The translations under genes and the position numbers were made by a program. DNA of 43,627 nt from Escherichia phage TheodorHerzl, in sequence record MZ501107. One strand, written 5' to 3'. Below are positions 4,878-43,497 of this stretch, one piece after another. Positions within the stretch are counted from its first letter, which is position 1. The number at the start of each line of letters is the position of its first letter. The notes beneath the pieces are model-generated. The model had not been told where the DNA came from. It worked only from the letters and a program-made list of their open reading frames with translations, and searched no databases.

Positions 4878-4989
4878 CCCGTCCGCAGACCCCGACGAGG
4901 ATTTGATGATTGACGTGAAAAATATGGAATGCGGGGCGAATCTAAGGGCGCAGGTGCTGGAGTTGCAGCAAATAATTCGGGGGCCGTAA
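4759..4989 (+). CDS. putative o-spanin (Rz1-like outer-membrane lipoprotein)
   Basis: Signal peptide with lipobox MLRALTALIVILILSAC, a Pro-rich mature part with extra Cys, RBS GAGG 9 nt upstream. Starts inside the Rz-like ORF in a different frame and runs past its stop. Confidence 0.55.
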   Translation: MLRALTALIVILILSACGSSNVPLMPLTESALRPPCKFDSPSADPDEDLMIDVKNMECGANLRAQVLELQQIIRGP

Positions 4990-5002
4990 TGGCCCCTTTT
5001 TG
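4978..5002 (+). terminator. intrinsic terminator after the spanin pair (possibly bidirectional)
   Basis: GC hairpin GGGGCC-GTAAT-GGCCCC followed by TTTTTG; it overlaps the o-spanin stop. Coordinates approximate. Confidence 0.6.
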
Positions 5003-5519: not shown

Positions 5520-5540
5520 TGTCATTTCCTCGTTGTTGGT

Positions 5541-5580
5541 GTGCAACCAATATAGTGCAACCAATACGCGGATTGCAAGC
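5541..5580 (-). promoter_or_regulatory. sigma70-like promoter for the clamp-fragment gene, containing two ATTGGTTGCA motif copies
   Basis: Minus-strand reading gives TTGCAA, an 18-nt spacer that includes ATTGGTTGCAC, then TATATT, with a second TTGGTTGCAC just downstream. Coordinates approximate. Confidence 0.5.
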
Positions 5581-10421: not shown

Positions 10422-10448
10422 GGGGCCAGCAAGGCCCCTTTTTTTATT
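10422..10448 (+). terminator. intrinsic terminator after the major tail protein
   Basis: GGGGCC-AGCAA-GGCCCC followed by a run of eight T. Confidence 0.75.
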
Positions 10449-10461
10449 GGAGAATATTACA

Positions 10462-10824
10462 ATGGCTAAAGCACCACTCTTTACACTTGACCCTAAGCCG
10501 ACCTTTAAGCTGCCGATTGAGATCCCGCGCCCTGGTGAGAACGAACCAGGCAAGATGACGTTTACCGTCCGCCACCGCCCTATCGACGAATTTTCGCAGA
10601 CCATGCAGGACACCGAACGCAAGTTGTCGGAGTATGACGACAATGACCCGGACGGCTTTAACGTTATGGTCGAGGCCATCATGCACGTCGCAGAAGGCTG
10701 GAATCTGCCGGACGAATTTAACGCGGAGAACGTCCGCCGCCTGGTGGTCAACTATCCACGCGCGTTCGGTGTGTTCCACACTTCGTACTATCTCGAACTG
10801 ATGGGATTGCGTGAAAAAAACTAA
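10462..10824 (+). CDS. tail assembly chaperone (G-like)
   Basis: 120 aa from ATG 10462. Ends MGLREKN* with a slippery A-run at its 3-prime end; an open -1 frame continues downstream. Confidence 0.75.
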   Translation: MAKAPLFTLDPKPTFKLPIEIPRPGENEPGKMTFTVRHRPIDEFSQTMQDTERKLSEYDDNDPDGFNVMVEAIMHVAEGWNLPDEFNAENVRRLVVNYPRAFGVFHTSYYLELMGLREKN

Positions 10825-11138
10825 TTGAGGCGGCGCGACGCTTTTATGGCCCGCCGCCACCCTCCGAAGATTTAGCCGCAAGTTTATGGGGTGCGACCCC
10901 CGAAGATGTTTGTCCGCCTGTTGCGCTGTGGCCTGACAACGCGAAGATAGTCGCAGTCTTCACAGATTGCGCCACGCAATGGCGCACCGGATTTGGTGGC
11001 GCATACGGCATCGACTACGGCGTGATGGAGTGGTTATTTAAGATGCACGGTATCGAAAACGAGCAGCGCGCGTTTAAAGATATCAAGCTAATGGAACGAA
11101 TCGCGCTTGATGAGATGGCGCAGCAGAACCCCGCATAA
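10462..11138 (+). CDS. tail assembly chaperone GT fusion, produced by -1 frameshift near 10815-10821
   Basis: The -1 frame extension reads LIEAARRFYGPPPPSEDLAASLWGATPEDVCPPVALWPDNAKIVAVFTDCATQWRTGFGG...MAQQNPA and sits where the T-extension is conserved in siphoviruses. Confidence 0.6.
10815..10821 (+). other. programmed -1 ribosomal frameshift site (A AAA AAC)
   Basis: Heptamer A_AAA_AAC spans the last codons of the G-like ORF. The -1 frame (codon starts divisible by 3) stays open to TAA at 11136-11138. Confidence 0.65.
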
Positions 11139-11258
11139 TGAAGCGGGACAGGCGGGACGTCCCGTTTTGTCCCACCCCTGTGAAACTGCATACCTACTCA
11201 CTTCCATTGCATAATATAAAAGCGGGACAGGCGGGACGTCCCGTTTTGTCCCACCCCA
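11136..11258. repeat. direct repeat: two copies of a ~39-bp unit AAGCGGGACAGGCGGGACGTCCCGTTTTGTCCCACCCC spaced ~80 bp
   Basis: The unit appears identically at about 11141-11178 and 11220-11257. Each contains the palindrome GGGACGTCCC flanked by GGGACA and TGTCCC. Confidence 0.85.
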
Positions 11259-11299
11259 CAAAAGTGCATACGTATTCGGTTTTCGTGCATAAAACAAAC

Positions 11300-11400
11300 T
11301 GGACAAAAAGCGGGACAAACACTAGGCGGGACAAAGCGGGACAGCACCCCGTCCCAGCCAGTGCTGCCGCGGTTTTCAGCCGATCGGGACAGCGGGACAG
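11300..11400. repeat. GGGACA iteron block A
   Basis: Repeated GCGGGACA(A/G) units; about 70 bp is nearly identical to 38636-38705. Confidence 0.8.
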
Positions 11401-11405
11401 CACCC

Positions 11406-11453
11406 CAGTCTTTCAGACTAGACGGGGGTCAACGGCCCCCCTCGTCTGAGACT
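11406..11453 (+). repeat. conserved long imperfect hairpin A (copy of 38757-38803)
   Basis: CAGTCTTTCAGACTAGACGGGGGTCAACGG(C5-6)TCGTCTGAGACT followed by GAATAA. Inverted arms TCAGAC/GTCTGA and GGGGG/CCCCC. This copy appears to carry one extra C relative to copy B, judged from the reading frame of the overlapping ORF in the track. Confidence 0.75.
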
Positions 11454-11522
11454 GAATAAGGTTTGTTTTGAAATCGCTGATACAATATCCATCGGCAACT
11501 GCATAAAAAAGGGGACTGCATA

Positions 11523-14165
11523 ATGGCAGATCAGGCAGCAGGCATCACGCTAAAGGCTGATGTTGCACAAATCAGAACGGCAAATACTGTGCTGGACTCC
11601 TTCGCACAGAAATCCGAGAACACAGAAAACAAGGTTAAGAAATTAAACGACACCCTCGGCAAATCCAAAAAGGTGACGAGTGACGCCGCGGGCGGAATGG
11701 AAAAGCTGGCAAACGAATCGCAGCGCGCCGCCGATGGCATGACGAAACAGGAGCGACTCGCCAACAGGTTAGGGATGTCGACTAAAAACCTGGGCTTTGC
11801 CTCGCGTAACGCCGCATTCCAGCTACAGGATATTGCGGTAACGCTTGAGATGGGTATGCCGGTTCACCGCGTCATGCTTCAGCAGTTACCGCAGCTAACT
11901 GGGGCGTTCGGTGGACTGGGTAACACGCTGCGTTATGTTGCGGGCTTCCTCGGCCCAGTAGGGATCGGCCTCGCCGCCGTAACGGCAACGTTAGGCGTGG
12001 GCGTGGCAATTACGTCCCGCGCAGAGAACCAGGTCGCCGCGCTTAACAAGACGCTGGCGCTGTCAGGTAACATTTCCGGCCTGACGGCAAACCAGATCCT
12101 GGTGTTATCCGAGAACGCCGAGCGCATGGGCGGATCATTCCGCAAGACGCGTGACACAATCCAGGCGCTGGCGGCGGCGGGTGTGAAAGCGGGTGGTGAC
12201 TTCGGTGCATTGGCTAAGGTAGTGAATGACTTCGCGAAGGTGTCCAGCCAGCCGATCGAGGATGTGGTCGCGGCGGTGGCGAAGCTGTCTACAGACCCGG
12301 TAGGCGGCTTGCGAGCATTGGCTGATAAGTATCACGTCGTAAACGAAGCGCAGATCCAGCAGGTGCAGTCACTAATGACGGCTGGTCGCGAAACCGAAGC
12401 GGTGGCGCTGGCTAACAAAACAGCCGCGGCGTCGTTTACCACTATGACCAACGATATTAAGTCCAGCATGGGTACGCTTGAGCGGTCGATGAACGTCGTT
12501 ACATCGGCAGCTAAATCTATGTGGGATGCCATCCTGGATGTCGGGCGCGCGCAGTCCTCGAATGAGTCAGAGATGAAAGCGCGTGAATCATTGCAGCGAC
12601 TGACCACGGCTTACTATGCCGAGATGAAAGCGGTAAACGCTGCCGGTGGGGTGATGACCGAAGCGCAGAAAGCACGTATTAACATGCTTTATAGCGAAAT
12701 GGTCGCCCAGGAGAAAGTAGTCGCGTCGCTCACCCTGCGCAACCGTGCAGAGCGTGACAACGCCAACGCCGCGGAACAATCAGCAAAGGCGAACGAGGAG
12801 GCAAACCGCACTGCCCGCGACCGCGCCGCGTTTGAGAAGGAGTACGCAACCAACGCTAAGCGGCGCGCCGACGAGATCGCCCGCCTCAATTTGCTTAATA
12901 AGCGCGGCGTGATTAACGAGAAAGAGCTTGCCGAGGCGGTGAAGCAGGTAAACGAGCGTTACAAAGACCCCGCCCCGAAGAAGGCCGCCGCTGTTCGAGT
13001 CGATGCCGGGCTGAAAATGCTGGAGGTCGCACGGAGCGAACTGGCACAGCTTCGGGAATCAGGCAAGCAGATTGAGGCCAACTCTTCGACGCAGACCCGC
13101 ACGCAACGAGCGCAAGCGGCCCTTAACAAGCTGATTGCCGACAACGAGCAGTTAATCGCCGCGAGCAAAGAAAGGGCGCTGACGGCAGCAGAGAAGCAGC
13201 AATTAGTCGAGTTCGGACGCGTGAAGGAAGTACGTGAGCAGATCGTCGAAGAAGCCAAATTGCTGGACGCGAAAGAGAAGCAGGTCAAGGCGCACGCGCA
13301 GATCGACGCCTTCGTTAAGAACCAGAACGCCGAGCTAAAAGCCACCGCGGCGGGATATGCGCTTTCCACTCGCGAAGCGGCTAACCTGCGCGAAGAATTG
13401 CAGCTAATTGACCGCCTTAAGCGGGTGGGCGCTAGCGATACCGATATTGATCTGGCGGTGTCTAAGCTGCGCGAAGTGCAGGAAGCACAGACCGGTGCTA
13501 ATGCCTCGTTGTGGGATGGCTTCAGCCGCGGGCTTAAGGATAGCGTGGATGAAATGGGTAACTGTTATACGCAGATGGCGTCACTCACAAAATTCACGTT
13601 CGGCGCTATGCAGGACACGATGAACGAGTTTTTCGAGACTGGCAAGCTGAACGCAAAGGATATGGTTAAGTCCATCCTGAGCGAATTAATCAAGCTGGCT
13701 ACATCGCAGGCATTCAAGTCCATCGTTAACGCTTTCGGTGGTGACGGCGGCAAAAACGGATTGTTCGGCGCTATCTTCTCTGGCCTCACTAAGAATGCGG
13801 ACGGCGGAGCGTACGCAGGGGGCAATCTCGCGGCCTATTCGGGGAAAGTGGTAAGCCAGCCTACCTTTTTCAGTTATGGCGTTCAGGCGTTCGCTAAGGG
13901 CGCGGGATTGATGGGCGAGGCTGGACCCGAGGCCATCATGCCACTGAAGCGCGGGCCGGACGGGAAACTGGGCGTTGCCGCGTCTGGAGCAGGCGGAGGT
14001 ATGGTCGTGACGACTAACGTTTACACGGGGTCCGGTAAAACAGATACCAGTGTCAGCGGGCCGGACCCCCGTACCGCGCAGGCGTTCGGCAAGCAAATCA
14101 CCGAAGCGGTGAAGGCCGAGATCGTGAAAGCGACGAAACCGGGTGGTGTACTTTACAAACGATGA
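11523..14165 (+). CDS. tape measure protein
   Basis: 880 aa, largely alpha-helical and Ala/Gln-rich, with Gly-rich hydrophobic segments. Lies after the G/GT genes. Confidence 0.9.
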   Translation: MADQAAGITLKADVAQIRTANTVLDSFAQKSENTENKVKKLNDTLGKSKKVTSDAAGGMEKLANESQRAADGMTKQERLANRLGMSTKNLGFASRNAAFQLQDIAVTLEMGMPVHRVMLQQLPQLTGAFGGLGNTLRYVAGFLGPVGIGLAAVTATLGVGVAITSRAENQVAALNKTLALSGNISGLTANQILVLSENAERMGGSFRKTRDTIQALAAAGVKAGGDFGALAKVVNDFAKVSSQPIEDVVAAVAKLSTDPVGGLRALADKYHVVNEAQIQQVQSLMTAGRETEAVALANKTAAASFTTMTNDIKSSMGTLERSMNVVTSAAKSMWDAILDVGRAQSSNESEMKARESLQRLTTAYYAEMKAVNAAGGVMTEAQKARINMLYSEMVAQEKVVASLTLRNRAERDNANAAEQSAKANEEANRTARDRAAFEKEYATNAKRRADEIARLNLLNKRGVINEKELAEAVKQVNERYKDPAPKKAAAVRVDAGLKMLEVARSELAQLRESGKQIEANSSTQTRTQRAQAALNKLIADNEQLIAASKERALTAAEKQQLVEFGRVKEVREQIVEEAKLLDAKEKQVKAHAQIDAFVKNQNAELKATAAGYALSTREAANLREELQLIDRLKRVGASDTDIDLAVSKLREVQEAQTGANASLWDGFSRGLKDSVDEMGNCYTQMASLTKFTFGAMQDTMNEFFETGKLNAKDMVKSILSELIKLATSQAFKSIVNAFGGDGGKNGLFGAIFSGLTKNADGGAYAGGNLAAYSGKVVSQPTFFSYGVQAFAKGAGLMGEAGPEAIMPLKRGPDGKLGVAASGAGGGMVVTTNVYTGSGKTDTSVSGPDPRTAQAFGKQITEAVKAEIVKATKPGGVLYKR

Positions 14166-23383: not shown

Positions 23384-23409
23384 AAGGGGCCGTATGGCCC
23401 CTTTTTTAG
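23384..23409. terminator. terminator between the convergent tail fibre gene and the minus-strand early operon
   Basis: AAGGGGCC-GTAT-GGCCCC followed by six T. Confidence 0.75.
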
Positions 23410-35937: not shown

Positions 35938-36267
35938 ATGAATGTAAACGACGCAATCGAAATGTTAACGAAGACTGTTAGCAGTGAAACAAGCCGGTCA
36001 TGGGCTTATACCGATGCCGTTGGGGCGGTATTATTTGAGGTCGAGCGCCTGCGCAGTGTCGAGAAAGAATTACGCGCCAGGCTGGGATTGCTCAACGGCA
36101 CGGCAGCGAGCAAGCTACAAAAACACAATGAAGAAATGGAAGAATACAAAAAGCAGGTTATCCGTTTGCGCGCCGAGGGTAAATCGTGGGCGATGATTGC
36201 CGAGTTGACCGGGATTAATCAGAGCACAGTGCGCTCCTGGGTACGCAATAATAAAACTTCTAAGTAA
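35938..36267 (+). CDS. HTH DNA-binding protein (putative transcriptional regulator)
   Basis: 109 aa with RBS GAGGG. C-terminal helix-turn-helix KSWAMIAELTGINQSTVRSWVRNN. First gene of the rightward operon; a near-palindrome TTGGTCATTAACCAA overlaps its RBS region. Confidence 0.65.
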   Translation: MNVNDAIEMLTKTVSSETSRSWAYTDAVGAVLFEVERLRSVEKELRARLGLLNGTAASKLQKHNEEMEEYKKQVIRLRAEGKSWAMIAELTGINQSTVRSWVRNNKTSK

Positions 36268-36277
36268 GGCCACGGCA

Positions 36278-38542
36278 ATGAGCTTAATTAAATTCGCTGT
36301 AACAAGACCCGCTAAAAAAGGCGAAAAAGCCAGGGCGGAAAACTTCCAGATGACGACCGATGAGTTTTTCGAATTTATCAAAGATGCGAAAGAAATCTCC
36401 TCGGTGCATATCAACAAGACGGAAGATAAAGCCGAGTATGCGCGCCGCAAGCGTAAGGCCGATGGCATCGTGGCGTATACCAGTGACGGATTGCGTCGTA
36501 AGACCAGTGCGGTGGACCGCTCGATCCTGTTCTTTGATATTGACCGCACCGACACCCGCACCCTGCGCCGCTGCCGTAAGGCGTTCATCGACGCGGGTCT
36601 GGAACACGTATTTCACACCACCACCGGCGACCGCCACCCGCTGAAGGGCGGCACGCGTTGCGCCCGTTTCCTGGTGTTCACTGACAAGCCTGTACCGGCT
36701 GAAGACCTGGGCCGCGTCCAGTATGCACTATTACACCAACTGGGTCTGTCAGATGTGGACTTCGACGATTGCACGAAAGACACAAACCGCCTGATGTACC
36801 TGCCACACCAGCAGTCCGTTATTAAGTGCCACTATGGCAAGCGCGCCAATGTGCGTCGTCTACTCCGTCGGGCGGACAAGCTGGGGGTGGAAAAAGAGGA
36901 AGTACGCCGCGAGCTTACCCAGGGCGACGACGCAGTGGCAGACGGCATTCTGGACTGGTGCTTCCAGGCCGGATTCGAGGAGTTATCTTCTGGTCGCGGT
37001 TATGAAGTGCCGTGCCCGAACGAACATCTGCACAGCGGCGAAGGGTCGACGGCTATCATGGTCAAGGATGGCGAGATCCGTTTCAAGTGTATGCACACCG
37101 GCAACGAGTGTTGCTCGGAACTGAACAGACACCAGCACCTGGCGCTACGTCTTATCGGGATCCCGGACCACCTGAACGTCGAACCGCACAACATGTCACG
37201 TAAGCAAATCGCCGCCATCCTCCCAGGACTGGACGACGAGGAAGTGGAATCGTGCTATGAACATATCGTTGATGCGGTCGGTGACGGCGACGAGTACGGC
37301 GGATGTACGGACGCAGACCTTGACAACGAGCCGGTTGCGCTGTTCAGTAAGCACGACCCGATCATCGAGGGGTTGATTAACTTTAAATCGACCTGGTACA
37401 TGGCGGGTGAGTCGAACATCGGTAAGTCTTTCTACGTGCTGGGCCAGATGGGCGCGGTTGCCGCGGGTATTCCGTTCGGCGGCGCTAAGGTCGTCCAGTC
37501 CCATTGTTTCTATTTCGATGCGGAAGGCGGCGAAGCCTCCAACCAGCGTAAGGAAGCATTGCAGATTAAATATGAGCACGACCTGGACAAGCTGCACATT
37601 ATCGATCTGCAATCACGCGGCTGGGATATCACCAGCAAATCCGGCTTGCGTGAAGTTATCAGCTTCATCAACCGCACCGCTAACGGCGAACCGGTTGGCC
37701 TGGTGGCCTTCGACTCACTCAACCAGACTGTTGCGCTGCGGTCCGCGGATTCTAAGCCGTTCGACGAGAACAACGCCAGCGATATGGGTGAAGTGGTCAA
37801 GGCGCTGAAGGCCATTGCGGAAAATACAGGCGGAAGTGCGGGCGTCATCCACCACCCGGCGAAGGGTGCAAACGGCAGCAGAACGCCACGCGGGTCCGGC
37901 GCGCTTCATGGTGCTGTCGATTCTGCGTTCTTCCTGGAGCAACCGGACGACAATCAGCCGGGCCAATTGAACCTGTATCACGAAAAGGCACGTAACGGCA
38001 TCAAGCAAGCGCCGCGCGGCTTCGTCCTGCTCAAGTGCAAGGTTAAGGTGGATCTCCGCAAGTCCGAAGCGTTCGAAGCCCACCAGTCCACCAGCACCGG
38101 GCCGGACTTCGGTGATGTGGTTGCCGGTTGGGACGTCAAGCCGATCGCATCCACGCCACGCGACGAGACTCTTTATCTCGTACCGGTCGCCCTGGCACCG
38201 TTCGCCATCGAACAGGCGAAGGCCGCGGGTAAGGCAGCAGTTAAGGAAGAGAACGCCGCAGGGCCGCGCAACGAAAAAGAGAAAGTGCTTTATGCGGCAC
38301 TGGAAAAACTGATGGAAGATAACCCGGACCATACCGGATTCAGTAAATCGGCAATCGTCCGCCAGGCGGGATTGGCAAAAGGTGGCACATCGACGAAGGC
38401 AATCGACGATATGGTCGAGCGCGGCGTACTCGGTTTTTATACCGATCCGCACACCGGGGCCATCTATGGGTCGTCGAATATCGTCATCAAAACGAATATA
38501 CCCATCACGCTTTCTGCGACCGATGACGACCTGAAAGATTAA
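36278..38542 (+). CDS. primase-helicase (N-terminal primase-like domain with zinc-binding motif, C-terminal RecA-like AAA_25 ATPase)
   Basis: 754 aa. Cys/His cluster CPNEHLHSGEGS...KCMHTGNEC, Walker A AGESNIGKS, and Walker B LVAFDSL. Confidence 0.8.
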   Translation: MSLIKFAVTRPAKKGEKARAENFQMTTDEFFEFIKDAKEISSVHINKTEDKAEYARRKRKADGIVAYTSDGLRRKTSAVDRSILFFDIDRTDTRTLRRCRKAFIDAGLEHVFHTTTGDRHPLKGGTRCARFLVFTDKPVPAEDLGRVQYALLHQLGLSDVDFDDCTKDTNRLMYLPHQQSVIKCHYGKRANVRRLLRRADKLGVEKEEVRRELTQGDDAVADGILDWCFQAGFEELSSGRGYEVPCPNEHLHSGEGSTAIMVKDGEIRFKCMHTGNECCSELNRHQHLALRLIGIPDHLNVEPHNMSRKQIAAILPGLDDEEVESCYEHIVDAVGDGDEYGGCTDADLDNEPVALFSKHDPIIEGLINFKSTWYMAGESNIGKSFYVLGQMGAVAAGIPFGGAKVVQSHCFYFDAEGGEASNQRKEALQIKYEHDLDKLHIIDLQSRGWDITSKSGLREVISFINRTANGEPVGLVAFDSLNQTVALRSADSKPFDENNASDMGEVVKALKAIAENTGGSAGVIHHPAKGANGSRTPRGSGALHGAVDSAFFLEQPDDNQPGQLNLYHEKARNGIKQAPRGFVLLKCKVKVDLRKSEAFEAHQSTSTGPDFGDVVAGWDVKPIASTPRDETLYLVPVALAPFAIEQAKAAGKAAVKEENAAGPRNEKEKVLYAALEKLMEDNPDHTGFSKSAIVRQAGLAKGGTSTKAIDDMVERGVLGFYTDPHTGAIYGSSNIVIKTNIPITLSATDDDLKD

Positions 38543-38588: not shown

Positions 38589-38616
38589 ATTGGTTGCCGT
38601 GTAGTGTAAGTATAAT
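38589..38616 (+). promoter_or_regulatory. ATTGGTTGCC motif copies followed by a TATAAT -10 box
   Basis: Motif copies at 38554-38563 and 38589-38598; TATAAT at 38611-38616 (anchored to the track ORF that starts at 38546). Confidence 0.4.
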
Positions 38617-38635
38617 GAATAGTTATGCAATAAAA

Positions 38636-38756
38636 CTGCATAAACCAAACGGGACAAAAAGCGGGACAAACACTAGGCGGGACAAAGCGGGACAGCACCC
38701 CCGTCCCGCCCCGGATGACGCGGCCTGGAGAGGAGCGGGACAGCGGGACAGCACCC
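38636..38756. repeat. GGGACA iteron block B (homologous to 11287-11400)
   Basis: GGGACA at 38651, 38663, 38679, 38689, 38738 and 38745. The block TGCATAAACCAAACGGGACAAAAAGCGGGACAAACACTAGGCGGGACAAAGCGGGACAGCACCCCCGTCCC is nearly identical to region A. Confidence 0.8.
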
Positions 38757-38803
38757 CAGTCTTTCAGACTAGACGGGGGTCAACGGCCCCCTCGTCTGAG
38801 ACT
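38757..38803 (+). repeat. conserved long imperfect hairpin B (copy of 11406-11453)
   Basis: CAGTCTTTCAGACTAGACGGGGGTCAACGGCCCCCTCGTCTGAGACT followed by GAATAA. Confidence 0.8.
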
Positions 38804-38958
38804 GAATAAAATCCGAGGATTGCAAATTACACGGCAGCATGTTGCGAAGTGCGGTCGCGGATGAACTAGGCAACCAATGCGAGTTGTATTATGCTGAGTG
38901 AAAAATGTGGTTTGCAGTCACAGCAGATAGCGATCGACTTTTTCATGCGCGTGATTAA

Positions 38959-38993
38959 TATTGGTTGCATTCACCCCGGCACCTTGTTATATT
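38959..38993 (+). promoter_or_regulatory. sigma70-like promoter TTGCAT-N17-TATATT with flanking ATTGGTTGCA copies
   Basis: ATTGGTTGCAT at 38959-38969; TATATT at 38988-38993, followed immediately by TGGTTGCAC. Lies about 30 nt upstream of the 39021 gene. Confidence 0.55.
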
Positions 38994-39020
38994 GGTTGCA
39001 CACCAACGGGAGGGCGGAAC

Positions 39021-39951: not shown

Positions 39952-40508
39952 AATTACTATTCCGCCGTAAAGCAGATGGCTTCCCCATGAGGCCGATCCA
40001 GACCCTTGATACATGCGTGCGCTTGCGCCATGTACACAGCGGCCTTGAGAGCCTGGCAGATACGGCCCACCTACCGGCAAACTTTGACGTACTTACACAT
40101 GATATCGAGCGCGGCGATGTGCTGCGTGATATACGCAACGGGCAATTGTGGGTCGTGGAGCACACCCACCAGCACGGCTTGCGTATGCAATCCCGCAAGG
40201 ATGGCGTAGTAGTCGGGATGACGTACTTCGGGCTAATCCACTACGAGCGCGTGGGCCGCAAATACAGCCTCCGCAAACGCCAGCCGCATGAGCGCGTCGA
40301 GTTCCGCAAGTCGCAGCCCGCCTACGCAACCTACGACGCCCACCAGGTGCAAGCGAGGATGAAACGCGCCGCGCACGAAATCGTCAATCGCTTTGATGCC
40401 GTGACGAATGCGCAACGCCATGCGCAGGAATACGGCGTTGGATTCATCCGGGTGGAACAAGACGGCAGCATGAAAGCCATCGACCCGCGCTCGGTGATTC
40501 TGAAATGA
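39948..40508 (+). CDS. hypothetical protein
   Basis: 186 aa from the ATG with RBS GAGGAG. Confidence 0.55.
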   Translation: MKLLFRRKADGFPMRPIQTLDTCVRLRHVHSGLESLADTAHLPANFDVLTHDIERGDVLRDIRNGQLWVVEHTHQHGLRMQSRKDGVVVGMTYFGLIHYERVGRKYSLRKRQPHERVEFRKSQPAYATYDAHQVQARMKRAAHEIVNRFDAVTNAQRHAQEYGVGFIRVEQDGSMKAIDPRSVILK

Positions 40509-40651
40509 GTGCGTCTATCCGTGATATGCTGATGCACAACCGCTTTGAGATCGGCGGTCGGGTGTTTCGCAATTACTTCGTGGCGCGTGCATGGGCGCGC
40601 CATATTGGCAAACCGGAAGGGGCAATTCGATGCTATACGTCTTCGCGGTAG
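40505..40651 (+). CDS. small hypothetical protein (48 aa)
   Basis: ATGA overlap with the upstream gene. Confidence 0.3.
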   Translation: MSASIRDMLMHNRFEIGGRVFRNYFVARAWARHIGKPEGAIRCYTSSR

Positions 40652-40731
40652 TATGTGGCGGTAGTCTGGCGGCCCTGGTGCTGTTGGCGTCGGTTATTAG
40701 TCTGGTTAAATACCTATGGGGCAGATTATGA
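40630..40731 (+). CDS. small hydrophobic peptide (33 aa, one transmembrane segment)
   Basis: Reads MLYVFAVVCGGSLAALVLLASVISLVKYLWGRL and overlaps its neighbours. Confidence 0.3.
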   Translation: MLYVFAVVCGGSLAALVLLASVISLVKYLWGRL

Positions 40732-42297: not shown

Positions 42298-42354
42298 CCC
42301 GCCTCGATAAGTCCCGTGATATATTGTCCCCGGTCCCATAATCAGGAAGTAATT

Positions 42355-43497
42355 ATGCACCCGCAAACTAAAATCACAGACGAGCAATTGATTGCTGAAT
42401 TACAATCCGGCGCTACATCGAAAGAGATTTCTAAGAAGTACGGCTTGTCCCTCCGAAACGTCTACATGCGGAAAGCACGCTTGTCGAAAAAAGGAATTGG
42501 GCATGGCAATGATGCTGTAATCCGCAAGCGCGTTGCCGATGGCTTCGGTGTTAAGCGCGTATCGGCCCTGGTGCGCGGCAATGGCGAAGAGGTCATGTCG
42601 TGGGTTATCACTGAGCAGGACAAGGAGCGACAACTCGAAGCTATGCGCGCTGTTATCGAGGGTATGAACAGCGAAATCACACCGGCAGCGCCAGTAAAAG
42701 CCCCGCCAGTACCGATCCAGGCGCTCGACTTGCTCAACCTGTACACCGTGTCAGACTTCCACCTGGGCATGTTGGCATGGGGCGAGGAGACTGGCGAAGA
42801 CTGGGATATGGCGATCGCCGAAGACCTGTTCTACCGCTGGTTTGTCGAAGCCTTCGCCCGCGCACCGGACGCAGGCACTGCCGTAATTAATATCCTCGGG
42901 GATATGGCCCACTTTGATAGCCTCGACGCTGTCACTCCGGCAAGTGGTCACGTACTGGACGCCGACACCCGCTACCAGAAACTGGTCCGATACATGATTC
43001 GCATGGTGCGCAACGTCGTCGAACTGGCGCTGCAAAAACACCACAAAGTAAAACTGCTAATCGTCCAGGGAAATCATGACGAGTCGGGTATGATTTGGCT
43101 GGCTGAGATGTTCAATACTCTGTACGAGAACGAGCCGCGCGTCGATGTGGATACGTCCCCGGACGTCTACAAAATGGTGCAGCACGGCAAGACCACGCTA
43201 TTTTTCCACCACGGGCACAAAGCGCGATTCGATGCTATCGAGCAGGTTATGATTTCTAAATTCAGACAGGCTTTCGGATCCAGTGAGTATAGCTACGCGC
43301 ACGTAGGCCACTTGCACCACCAGAAGATCGTCGAGTCTCGCAATATGATTGTTGAACAGCACCGGACGCTCGCAGCGAAAGACGCCTACGCCAGTCGTGG
43401 CGGTTGGATGTCCGGTCGCAGCGCAAACGTCATCACCTACAGCGCCAACTACGGCGAAGTAGCGCGCTTAACCATTAGCCCAGAAATGTTGAAGTAA
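42355..43497 (+). CDS. HTH domain fused to calcineurin-like metallophosphoesterase
   Basis: 380 aa from the ATG with RBS AGGAAG. N-terminal HTH TSKEISKKYGLSLRNVYMRKARL. Phosphoesterase motifs SDFHLG (D-x-H), LGDMAHFD (GD), QGNHDE (GNHD/E), HHGH and HVGHLHH. Located directly upstream of the small terminase if the genome is circularised. Confidence 0.7.
   Translation: MHPQTKITDEQLIAELQSGATSKEISKKYGLSLRNVYMRKARLSKKGIGHGNDAVIRKRVADGFGVKRVSALVRGNGEEVMSWVITEQDKERQLEAMRAVIEGMNSEITPAAPVKAPPVPIQALDLLNLYTVSDFHLGMLAWGEETGEDWDMAIAEDLFYRWFVEAFARAPDAGTAVINILGDMAHFDSLDAVTPASGHVLDADTRYQKLVRYMIRMVRNVVELALQKHHKVKLLIVQGNHDESGMIWLAEMFNTLYENEPRVDVDTSPDVYKMVQHGKTTLFFHHGHKARFDAIEQVMISKFRQAFGSSEYSYAHVGHLHHQKIVESRNMIVEQHRTLAAKDAYASRGGWMSGRSANVITYSANYGEVARLTISPEMLK

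Follow-up and report, generated by a model that had tools for sequence, protein, structure and literature searches.

A repeat-and-hairpin element in the tail operon of a Dhillonvirus as a candidate second copy of an iteron-type replication origin

We found a structured non-coding gap of 384 bp (region A, 11139-11522) in the tail operon of Escherichia phage TheodorHerzl (MZ501107), whose Dhillonvirus genome (an HK578/SO-1-like coliphage) makes up the whole stretch of DNA analysed here, 43,627 nucleotides and hereafter the window. It separates the stop codon (11138) of the tail chaperone's DUF1799 'T' part from the ATG of the tape-measure gene (11523), and it contains two exact 38-bp units, seven CGGGACA words and an imperfect hairpin of 49 nt. 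A stretch of about 175 bp from this region recurs at 38637-38809 (region B), just 3' of the primase-helicase gene. On balance, we lean towards the view that the gap is a second copy, brought into the tail operon by duplication, of an iteron-type replication origin with a hairpin for primase/helicase entry. That a protein binds there, that the DNA melts and is primed, and that either region acts as an origin at all is what we infer from comparing sequences. The repeats are not a new sighting, as the 2009-era GenBank record of Sodalis phage SO-1 (NC_013600) already flags a 'region A' and a 'region B' as repeat_regions with mutual similarity, with no established function given in those entries. 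Our search of the literature on Dhillonvirus, SO-1, HK578, SSL-2009a/EP23/JL1, SECphi18 and phiEap-2 found nothing on the element. What is new here is the architecture across genera and the co-variation of the repeat word with the winged helix of the helicase, both read from sequence comparison; the anatomy and the conservation are direct observations.

Region A opens with iteron module 1, the first exact 38-bp unit (AAGCGGGACAGGCGGGACGTCCCGTTTTGTCCCACCCC, 11141-11178), which includes GCGGGACA at 11143, the palindrome GCGGGAC/GTCCCG at 11152-11164 and an inverted TGTCCC at 11168-11173. AT-rich box region 1 follows (11179-11219), with TGCATA at 11187 and 11208, a 21-nt period; the same box region can be written as TGCATA-N17-CATAAT, which is promoter-like. 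Iteron module 2 (11220-11257) is the second exact 38-bp unit, identical to the first in this genome and present in a loop-flipped form, GGGACAG[GGGTG]CTGTCCC, in other Dhillonviruses. AT-rich box region 2 (11258-11305) again carries TGCATA twice, at 11265 and 11286, and the stretch common to regions A and B begins at 11286. The TGCATA boxes are homologous to the paired GTGAATAGTTATGC boxes of the outgroups. Iteron module 3 (11306-11355) has direct GCGGGACA words at 11310, 11326 and 11336 and an inverted GTCCC at 11351, and the spacings of its direct repeats (16 and 10) are similar to the pattern found in outgroups with other repeat words. A conserved linker block (AGCCAGTGCTGCCGCGGTTTTCAGCCGATC, 11356-11384), which resembles CTGCCGCAAGGGTTTGCTGCCGAA of phiEap-2 and has a diverged counterpart in region B, is followed by two more direct repeats (11385-11401; CGGGACA at 11385 and GCGGGACA at 11392) and by the long imperfect hairpin or palindrome (11406-11454), with three helical segments and a variable loop. 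Upstream of the tape-measure gene, an extended -10 promoter-like element on the + strand (TGATACAAT, 11478-11486) is 98% conserved and may restart tail-operon transcription after the element. Finally, TCGGCAAC (11492-11499, + strand) is a copy of the ACGGCARC word, which is over-represented genome-wide, and this site reads exactly ACGGCAAC in several other Dhillonviruses.

A preliminary description of this DNA had placed a non-coding element between the chaperone stop and the tape-measure start, with two exact 38-bp copies, a GGGACA iteron block, a long imperfect hairpin and conservation at the nucleotide level in two places, and our analysis bears out each of these points. The 43.6-kb window has 14 copies of CGGGACA, seven of them in 11144-11393, six in 38650-38744 and one elsewhere, and 11286-11459 is 90% identical to 38637-38809 over 175 nt. 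The overlapping open reading frames had been regarded as artefacts of the DNA repeat, in agreement with our finding that start and frame are not kept among 18 distinct region A sequences. The ORF at 11138-11449 was rejected as a gene because its start codon is missing in 8 of the 18 sequences, it is truncated in 10 of the 18 and it has no Pfam match. In the same 18 sequences, the repeat words are conserved more than the intervening spacers (hairpin stems 99%, TGCATA boxes 97%, GGGAC/GTCCC words 94-96%, the rest of region A 87%). Region A as a whole folds with a z-score of -5.4 against shuffles. The element is present in all 157 Dhillonvirus records matching the query, and the exact hairpin word is found twice per contig in nearly all Dhillonvirus contigs of IMG/VR and ENA. 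A search of E. coli chromosomes and plasmids for copies of the element, such as satellites or decoys, found none. A CRISPR-like mini-array was also considered and rejected, as no lineage but Oekolampad/jat has an identical pair of units, unit 2 being different in other phages, and the 'spacers' hold conserved boxes.

Region B starts 108 nt past the stop codon of the helicase gene, and it likewise lies beside the helicase gene in 11 relatives. Its AT-rich boxes (TGAATAGTTATGCA-N7-TGCATAAA, 38616-38649) have no iterons to their left and are followed by an iteron block (38650-38751) with CGGGACA at 38650, 38662, 38678, 38688, 38736 and 38744 and an inverted GTCCCGC at 38703. The copy of the long hairpin (38757-38804) comes next, and a ACGGCAGC word on the + strand 3' of the hairpin (38831-38838) is found at the same place in all relatives examined. 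The two regions are 27 kb apart, or 16 kb around the circle. Identities are 0.92 between A copies, 0.91 between B copies and 0.85-0.86 between A and B, which is the pattern of old paralogues that were kept separately, and both appear to be under selection. The spacer ACACTAG is common to A and B in this window and had suggested concerted evolution. Concerted evolution was rejected over 15 genomes, in which the identity of A and B within a genome (0.861) is barely higher than that between genomes (0.848), as compared with 0.91-0.92 for A-A and B-B pairs. By this measure, conversion between A and B is only occasional.

The gene next to region B (36278-38542, + strand) encodes a primase-helicase of 754 aa, with an AEP/PrimPol N-terminal part, an AAA_25 RepA-like helicase at aa 357-531 and a C-terminal winged helix. 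According to fold predictions, the primase part is an AEP primase with a RepB'-like fold, the cognate kind for an ssi-type signal, and the winged helix (about aa 666-737, nt 38273-38488) would give the helicase the DNA-binding domain of an initiator. A cluster of short repeats lies directly beside the gene of a putative initiator-helicase, and we propose the winged helix as the reader of these repeats. Winged-helix domains are generic and can also bind RNA or proteins.

The same architecture is found directly 3' of the helicase gene in relatives whose helicases are 43-49% identical, namely phiEap-2, AH01, Cornellvirus (SE1, FSL SP-031 and others) and the metagenomic sequences L052-L055, L111 and L112, and also in the metagenomic L048, a lineage of 68% identity. 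First come one or two repeats and a pair of AT-rich boxes at a distance of 21 nt. Three or four direct repeats, spaced by about 12, 16 and 10, lead to an inverted repeat and a linker, after which two or three further direct repeats precede the long hairpin. The AT-rich stretch is modest, with 65-75% AT over 40 nt. In region A and in the outgroups it is enclosed by repeat sets, repeats there standing on both sides of the boxes; region B is without the left set and has repeats on one side only, inverted copies included. In phiEap-2, the chaperone ORF overlaps the tape-measure gene, so there is no gap at that position.

While the arrangement is shared, the repeat word differs by lineage, being GCGGGACA, CGGACAA, GGGGGAGA, CCGACAA or GGGATAA. 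The co-variation, which is based on these five word classes among 12 lineages, is with the hypervariable C-terminal winged-helix domain. For example, the helicases of phiEap-2 and SE1 are 77-97% identical over most of the protein and only 36-47% in the last ~110 aa, where phiEap-2 resembles AH01, with which it shares the repeat word, more than SE1. Words forecast from the winged-helix sequence were right in three out of three cases (P0108, CGGACAA; P0030, GGGGGAGA; P0058, GGGATAA), and P0037, with the same winged-helix type as P0058, also has GGGATAA. The repeats and the DNA-binding domain therefore change jointly between relatives, as is expected of cognate specificity. Other candidate readers were rejected. 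The small HTH protein encoded at 35938-36267, upstream of the helicase, belongs to different families in lineages with a common architecture (HTH_23 in Dhillonvirus versus Cro/C1 HTH_3 in phiEap-2 and SE1), so it does not track the repeats. The product of the gene at 42355 had been considered together with the GTCCC repeats reported near 42300-42340; a triplet is indeed present at 42311-42337, but it is not conserved in one alignable relative, and this candidate was dropped.

The hairpin (49 nt; 11406-11454 and 38757-38804) folds at -27 kcal/mol and is built of the helices CAGTCT/AGACTG, CAGAC/GTCTG and GACGGGGG/CCCCC(C)TCGTC. Across relatives, the outer (H1) stem falls into four sequence classes, all Watson-Crick, and full compensatory changes are seen as AGTCT/AGACT, CTCCT/AGGAG, TCATC/GATGA and TCCTC/GAGGA. 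A conserved hairpin upheld by compensatory change therefore stands beside the iterons, as is characteristic of ssi hairpins. The - strand folds as well as or better than the + strand in 8 of 8 lineages, with z-scores alike, which is as expected of a DNA palindrome; strand-specific folding was set aside as a discriminator between RNA and DNA, as no asymmetry was seen. It is worth mentioning that this is one palindrome, foldable on either strand, whereas the RSF1010 type has two hairpins on opposite strands and primes at a fixed base 3' of the hairpin, and that the phage palindrome is followed by GAATAA with no U-tract.

Taking these features together, regions A and B would serve phage replication as cis-acting DNA elements, forming an iteron-type origin built like those of self-loading helicase-initiators. 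The GCGGGACA words, direct and inverted, would be binding sites for the winged helix of the phage's own primase-helicase, and the duplex would open at the AT-rich TGCATA/GTGAATA boxes that the repeat sets enclose. The 49-nt hairpin, possibly with the ACGGCARC word just 3' of it, would then tell the AEP primase part where to enter or prime, a role that would resemble that of the ssi hairpins of IncQ plasmids. The ancestral position would be directly 3' of the helicase gene (region B), and in Dhillonviruses a full copy would have come to lie between the genes for the tail chaperone and the tape measure (region A), with the conserved TGATACAAT promoter restarting tape-measure transcription behind it. 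As region A keeps both repeat sets and region B has lost the left one, A may be the complete origin; by analogy with P4, A may serve as the origin and B as an auxiliary site, like ori and crr, or the reverse. A replication site, or sites for a phage DNA-binding protein, had been among the candidates of the preliminary description, and the comparative evidence favours this candidate, on the basis of the architecture beside the primase-helicase in distant relatives and of the word that co-varies with the winged helix.

Several features count against an origin. The repeat spacing is irregular, and the polarity of the element relative to transcription is the same in every lineage, which would fit a role in the transcript. 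The precedents in SaPIs and P4 have helicases of the SF3/MCM kind, whereas that of the phage is RepA/DnaB-like with a RecA fold. It would also be unusual for an origin to lie amid the genes of a late operon. GC skew was rejected as an origin indicator, as it mirrors gene orientation only, and no DnaA or IHF consensus sites were found in regions A and B. We also considered a broader proposal, which we regard as rather doubtful as a whole: a hitherto undescribed all-in-one initiator (AEP primase, RepA-type SF4 RecA-fold helicase and winged helix) that self-loads at 7-8-nt iterons in Dhillonviruses and their Guernseyvirinae relatives, with a two-site origin evolved in the Dhillonviruses, one site of which lies inside the tail operon and whose parts cooperate like P4 ori/crr, and with ACGGCARC as a recognition signal of the primase-helicase along the genome. 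The ACGGCARC word has 49 copies versus ~4 expected, is strand-biased and has one copy 3' of the hairpin in every lineage.

Control of transcription at the DNA level is an unlikely alternative, in which a phage regulator would use the GGGAC palindromes and repeats as operators, TGCATA-N17-CATAAT/CATAAA would be promoters, and the first palindrome with its TTTT would be a weak terminator of the chaperone transcript, the whole cluster insulating and re-setting the distal tail genes and, in region B, the post-helicase genes. Indeed, TGMATA-N17-HATARW is found only in region A (twice) and region B (once), the extended -10 TGATACAAT is conserved ahead of the tape-measure gene, and the GTGAATAGT boxes of Jersey-/Kagunaviruses lie inside a clear TTGACA-17-TATAGT promoter beside an HTH gene. 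However, a general promoter scan gave nothing beyond chance, the repeat word does not co-vary with the small HTH proteins, and nothing of the kind is needed at this place in relatives that share the tail gene order. The first palindrome plus TTTT was called a rho-independent terminator by the annotators of the HK578 and WFI records, but its T-run is only 4 nt long and is not conserved in unit 2; an intrinsic terminator was rejected, since the scan made no + strand call in the region and the TTTT of the 38-bp unit is lost in unit 2 of relatives. Sites for a late-gene activator, as suggested earlier, are not supported, the word being confined to two loci (13 of 14 copies). Transcriptional control would also leave the hairpin and the co-variation with the helicase C-terminus unexplained, and it may be true in part, alongside a replication origin.

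A + strand RNA element appears quite improbable. It could act as a put/nut-like antitermination site, as a hairpin for stabilisation or RNase III-type processing, or as a small RNA with protein-binding words, the protein being perhaps the winged helix in autoregulation. The constant polarity relative to transcription in every lineage examined, folding significantly better than shuffles, the compensatory changes in the stems and the presence of two copies, each ahead of a gene block, are all compatible with such an element. On the other hand, no Rfam family was matched at gathering or relaxed thresholds, with only chance miRNA-like matches, the equal or better folding of the - strand in all eight lineages gives no preference for RNA, the repeats also occur inverted, the hairpin lacks a U-tract, and the tail-operon copy is absent from relatives in which the gene order is kept. 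The put/nut antitermination put forward in the preliminary description is likewise not supported, in view of these relatives, the Rfam result, the folding of both strands and the inverted repeats. A CsrA/CsrB-type GGA sponge was attractive, as GGGACA, CGGACAA and GGGGGAGA contain GGA, but was ruled out by the lineage L054, whose (T)CCGACAA has none.

A packaging or recombination site, with repeats for the small terminase (pac/cos-like) or a recombinase and copies as cutting or exchange sites, is very improbable: although terminase recognition sites are often short repeats and several database records and metagenome contigs start or end at the element, assemblers produce contig ends at a 175-bp repeat and such breaks, not physical genome ends, best explain them, in all lineages the terminase genes (1-1937) are a long way off and the helicase gene is always adjacent, the repeat word tracks the helicase C-terminus, and two pac sites per genome would be odd. 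Nothing was found in support of the packaging site suggested earlier.

If the element is a replication origin, this would locate the start of replication in virulent coliphages of a large and widely used group with no described origin, which includes the BASEL Dhillonviruses Bas18 and Bas83, SECphi18, Cornellvirus and relatives. It would also provide a natural matched series, with five repeat words and five winged-helix variants, for initiator-specificity switching. For phage engineering, the tail-operon gap should then not count as dispensable spacer, and a plasmid bearing such a sequence might undergo amplification or hamper the infection.

The element can be compared with several known systems. 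HK022 put and lambda nut also come as two similar structured copies in sense orientation ahead of gene blocks; unlike them, the phage element has neither boxA/boxB nor a put-like two-stem anatomy, its strands fold alike, its repeats co-vary with a helicase domain and there are relatives without the tail copy. At the oriV of RSF1010 (IncQ), RepA, RepB' and RepC are separate proteins, RepC reads iterons of 20 bp, and each strand has its own ssi hairpin, whereas the phage has one polypeptide, 7-8-nt words and one long palindrome. The alpha protein of P4 is a primase-helicase whose C-terminal winged-helix domain binds octamer iterons, and P4 needs two iteron clusters kilobases apart, ori and crr, the latter adjoining the alpha gene. 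Much as region A has two 79-bp units, the P4 crr is made of a pair of long direct repeats with iterons in each. In contrast to the phage enzyme, alpha has another primase type and an SF3 helicase, and the phage sites are 27 kb apart, with one inside the tail operon. The Rep proteins of SaPIs, some of which are fused to a primase, read 5-6-nt iterons with a C-terminal winged helix, and 6-12 iterons in opposite orientations lie immediately downstream of rep, flanking an AT-rich stretch (PMC9371898). The arrangement proposed for region B is similar: the SaPI helicase is the initiator, it is fused to a primase in SaPI5 and its specificity varies among relatives (PMC9371898). The SaPI Rep motor is a 3'-5' AAA+ helicase related to the SF3/MCM groups, while that of the phage is an AAA_25 RepA/DnaB-like RecA-fold; SaPI origins have neither a long hairpin nor a second distant copy, and there is no sequence similarity. 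Iterons beside a primase-helicase gene are, as these systems illustrate, an established pattern.

The phage belongs to Dhillonvirus, among the virulent coliphages of the HK578/SO-1 type; 157 phage records match positions 10800-11900, and Escherichia phage Oekolampad (Bas18) is 99.5% identical over this stretch. Structural genes occupy the + strand from 1 to ~23.4 kb, replication genes lie on the - strand between 23.4 and 35.5 kb, and a + strand block from 35.9 kb on carries genes for a small HTH protein and for the 754-aa primase-helicase (36278-38542), together with small genes and the genes for lysis. In the tail operon, a repeat-rich gap, region A, extends from the stop of the tail chaperone's 'T' part (DUF1799; 11138) to the tape-measure start (11523), and a related copy, region B, follows the primase-helicase gene. 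The features ascribed to the gap in the preliminary description are borne out: a 38-bp unit occurs in two exact copies (11141-11178 and 11220-11257), 13 of the 14 CGGGACA iterons, or words, in the window fall inside the two loci (seven in 11144-11393, six in 38650-38744, one elsewhere), positions 11286-11459 are 90% identical to 38637-38809 across 175 nt, and the long imperfect hairpin folds at ~ -27 kcal/mol in both copies (11406-11454 and 38757-38804). Among 18 distinct Dhillonvirus gap versions, conservation is 99% in the hairpin stems, 97% in the TGCATA boxes, 94-96% in the GGGAC/GTCCC words and 87% in everything else, and almost every Dhillonvirus contig from IMG/VR and ENA has the exact hairpin word twice. 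The ORF at 11138-11449 is not a gene, because across these versions its start codon is missing in 8/18, it is truncated in 10/18 and 1-nt indels are many. The gap element is real, conserved and, as had been proposed, non-coding.

The element was flagged before and left unexplained. In GenBank, the entry for Sodalis phage SO-1 (NC_013600) marks 'region A' at 11214-11597 and 'region B' at 40178-40657, with the wording 'direct, inverted and palindromic repeat sequences; sequence similarity with region B; possible ...', the jat and rolling records annotate a repeat_region at the element, and the HK578 and WFI records label its first palindrome a rho-independent terminator; a literature search found no paper discussing the element's function.

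The same architecture lies directly 3' of the gene in relatives whose primase-helicases are 43-49% identical to that of the window, namely Enterobacter phage phiEap-2, Pantoea phage AH01, Cornellvirus Salmonella phages (SE1, FSL SP-031, CECAV_044 and 5579) and the metagenomic loci L052-L055, L111 and L112, and likewise in L048 (helicase 68% identical). The shared order opens with one or two short repeats and a pair of AT-rich boxes (GTGAATAGTTATGC) with a 21-nt period. Next come three or four direct repeats, spaced by about 12, 16 and 10, and a repeat in inverted orientation that makes a palindrome; after a linker (..TTGCCGA..) and two or three further direct repeats, a long three-segment hairpin closes the series. 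The word is GCGGGACA in Dhillonvirus and L048, CGGACAA in phiEap-2, AH01 and L052, GGGGGAGA in Cornellvirus and L053, CCGACAA in L054, and GGGATAA in L055, L111 and L112. Since phiEap-2 lacks the chaperone/tape-measure gap, the helicase-adjacent site is ancestral and the tail-operon copy a Dhillonvirus addition. Repeats flank the AT-rich boxes on both sides and the outgroup-like linker is kept in region A, while region B has neither. Identity is 0.92 among A copies, 0.91 among B copies and 0.85-0.86 between A and B; the two are old paralogues that stay separate, with only occasional conversion, the window being one case, and this separation suggests that each copy has its own role. The more distant Otaku and L049-L051 carry after the helicase gene a 450-650-bp non-coding stretch with many lineage-specific direct and inverted words in a different arrangement, and at this place Jersey- and Kagunaviruses have a terminator, an HTH gene on the reverse strand and a promoter containing GTGAATAGT boxes instead. 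In region B of some Dhillonviruses (L022, L025, L026, L031, L034 and L037), a 54-bp insertion just after the helicase stop, missing from the window, holds a duplicated TTGCGCGCATTGGTTGCC and the perfect palindrome GATATGGGAATTCCCATATC. The inverted repeats at 11231-11250 and 38624-38643 have loop-flipped versions among relatives (CACCC or GGGTG between GGGACAG and CTGTCCC; ATAAAAC or GTTTTAT between TTATGCA and TGCATAA), which are a signature of template switching at hairpins.

The repeat word tracks the helicase C-terminus, in agreement with the earlier suggestion of phage-protein sites or a replication site. The phiEap-2 and SE1 helicases are 77-97% identical over most of their length and 36-47% in the last ~110 residues, where phiEap-2 more closely resembles AH01, whose word it shares, than SE1; outside these residues, SE1 and AH01 are equally close or closer. 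Words predicted from the winged-helix sequence prior to fetching the DNA were right in 3/3 helicase relatives (P0108, CGGACAA; P0030, GGGGGAGA; P0058, GGGATAA), P0037, with the winged-helix type of P0058, likewise has GGGATAA, and the co-variation spans five word classes. The small HTH protein whose gene precedes that of the helicase was rejected as the word reader because its family does not follow the words, being HTH_23-type in Dhillonvirus and Cro/C1 HTH_3 in phiEap-2 and SE1. An AAA_25 (RepA-like helicase) domain covers residues 357-531 of the primase-helicase, the PDB match to RSF1010 RepA is weak, and PHROGs names the family 'replicative helicase-primase'; the remainder of the protein fits a replication initiator.

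A cluster of promoters, operators and terminators may hold in part and is, as a full account, unlikely: TGMATA-N17-HATARW is confined to regions A and B, but a general promoter scan is at chance level, and the hairpin and the helicase link are both left unexplained. The window also holds 24 copies of TTGGTTGC (TTGGTYGC), mostly paired, in intergenic promoter-like places on both strands (pairs 5550/5564, 21522/21637, 24608/24613, 26524/26541, 29354/29366 and 32917/32933; listed singly, 35741, 38555, 38590, 38877, 38961, 38992 and 39728), one context being TTGCAT-N17-TATATT and then GGTTGCAC; a perfect 20-nt inverted copy joins 5535-5554 and 38988-39007. The word is probably an operator or promoter word of early genes, and relatives have GTTGGCTG or GCTGCCAAC in its place. 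Three strong terminator hairpins that resemble one another (GGGGCC-N-GGCCCC, then a T-run) lie at 4981-5002, 10422-10444 and 23386-23407, one of them right after the major tail protein gene and upstream of the chaperone genes. The GTCCC repeats reported near 42300-42340 are present, three at 42311-42337 (27 nt) between a terminator and the HTH-phosphoesterase gene start at 42355, but are not conserved in the relative L110.

Both hairpin arms are invariant in Dhillonviruses and the loop is freely variable. Between genera, the outer and first stems show full compensatory changes (AGTCT/AGACT, CTCCT/AGGAG, TCATC/GATGA, TCCTC/GAGGA), the inner G-rich/C-rich stem is likewise changed, and the three-segment shape is kept in all lineages except the Cornellvirus type (SE1, L053), where the outermost 3' arm is missing. 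Because the reverse strand folds equally well or better in 8/8 lineages and whole-element z-scores are similar for the two strands, there is no sign of a structure confined to the sense RNA; the data are compatible with a palindrome in the DNA, or with a hairpin that forms on either single strand. In neither copy does a U-tract come after the hairpin, and Rfam gave no match to the element. Its constant polarity relative to transcription would suit a sense-RNA element, which we consider slightly less likely than the promoter, operator and terminator cluster: against the put/nut version put forward in the preliminary description, and a sponge version, stand the similar folding of the two strands, the occurrence of words in inverted orientation, the lack of a tail-operon copy in relatives and one lineage having lost GGA. 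Many Dhillonvirus database records and metagenome contigs have a terminus at, or close to, the hairpin or region A (L102, L104, L105, L108, CHD5UKE2, EcoIv6a_Kente and PNS1), most likely by assembly breaks at the 175-bp repeat rather than at a physical genome end, and a packaging or recombination site, for which such expected artefacts are the one argument, is very improbable.

The word ACGGCARC occurs 49 times in the window (36 +, 13 -; 4.3 +/- 2.3 expected), for example at 1430, 2252, 3758, 9304, 13182 and 38831 (+) and 4273, 7204 and 24251 (-). ACGGCAGC is the most frequent + strand 8-mer, and since its copies fall in two of three reading phases (12/13/2), the excess is no codon or peptide effect. 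phiEap-2 has 29 copies on + and 13 on -, and one copy follows the hairpin position in all the relatives looked at, even where the repeat/hairpin architecture is missing; the word may serve as a signal for the primase-helicase or be a Chi-like site. Another skewed octamer, GCGGGCTT, is present 15 times on + (427, 1083, 1647, 2320, 7589, 8238, 11940, 13528, 16099, 19134, 23444, 26162, 28077, 32112 and 33639) and four times on -, across both transcription directions, and E. coli Chi, GCTGGTGG, six times on + and twice on -.

On balance, we favour regions A and B as origin-type DNA elements, with the reservation that winged helices are generic domains and that a late operon is an unusual place for an origin. 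In this scheme the primase-helicase would bind the words through its winged helix, the DNA would open at the AT-rich boxes that separate the word sets, and at the hairpin, perhaps together with the ACGGCARC word that lies 20-30 nt past it, the helicase and AEP primase would engage single-stranded DNA; the conserved extended -10 element TGATACAAT after region A (11478-11486) could restore tape-measure transcription beyond a protein-bound or structured site. The element is best classed as a probable iteron-type origin whose second copy, inside the tail operon, is unusual. P4 alpha, which has two iteron clusters in separate places (ori and crr), and RSF1010 oriV, in which ssi hairpins for RepB' accompany the iterons, follow the same logic. 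SaPI Reps, one of which is a primase fusion, read 5-6-nt iterons by a C-terminal winged helix, and these iterons, some oppositely oriented, lie immediately downstream of rep, flanking an AT-rich stretch (PMC9371898). The mechanism proposed here follows this SaPI logic, with a helicase motor whose superfamily is not that of the SaPI and P4 motors.
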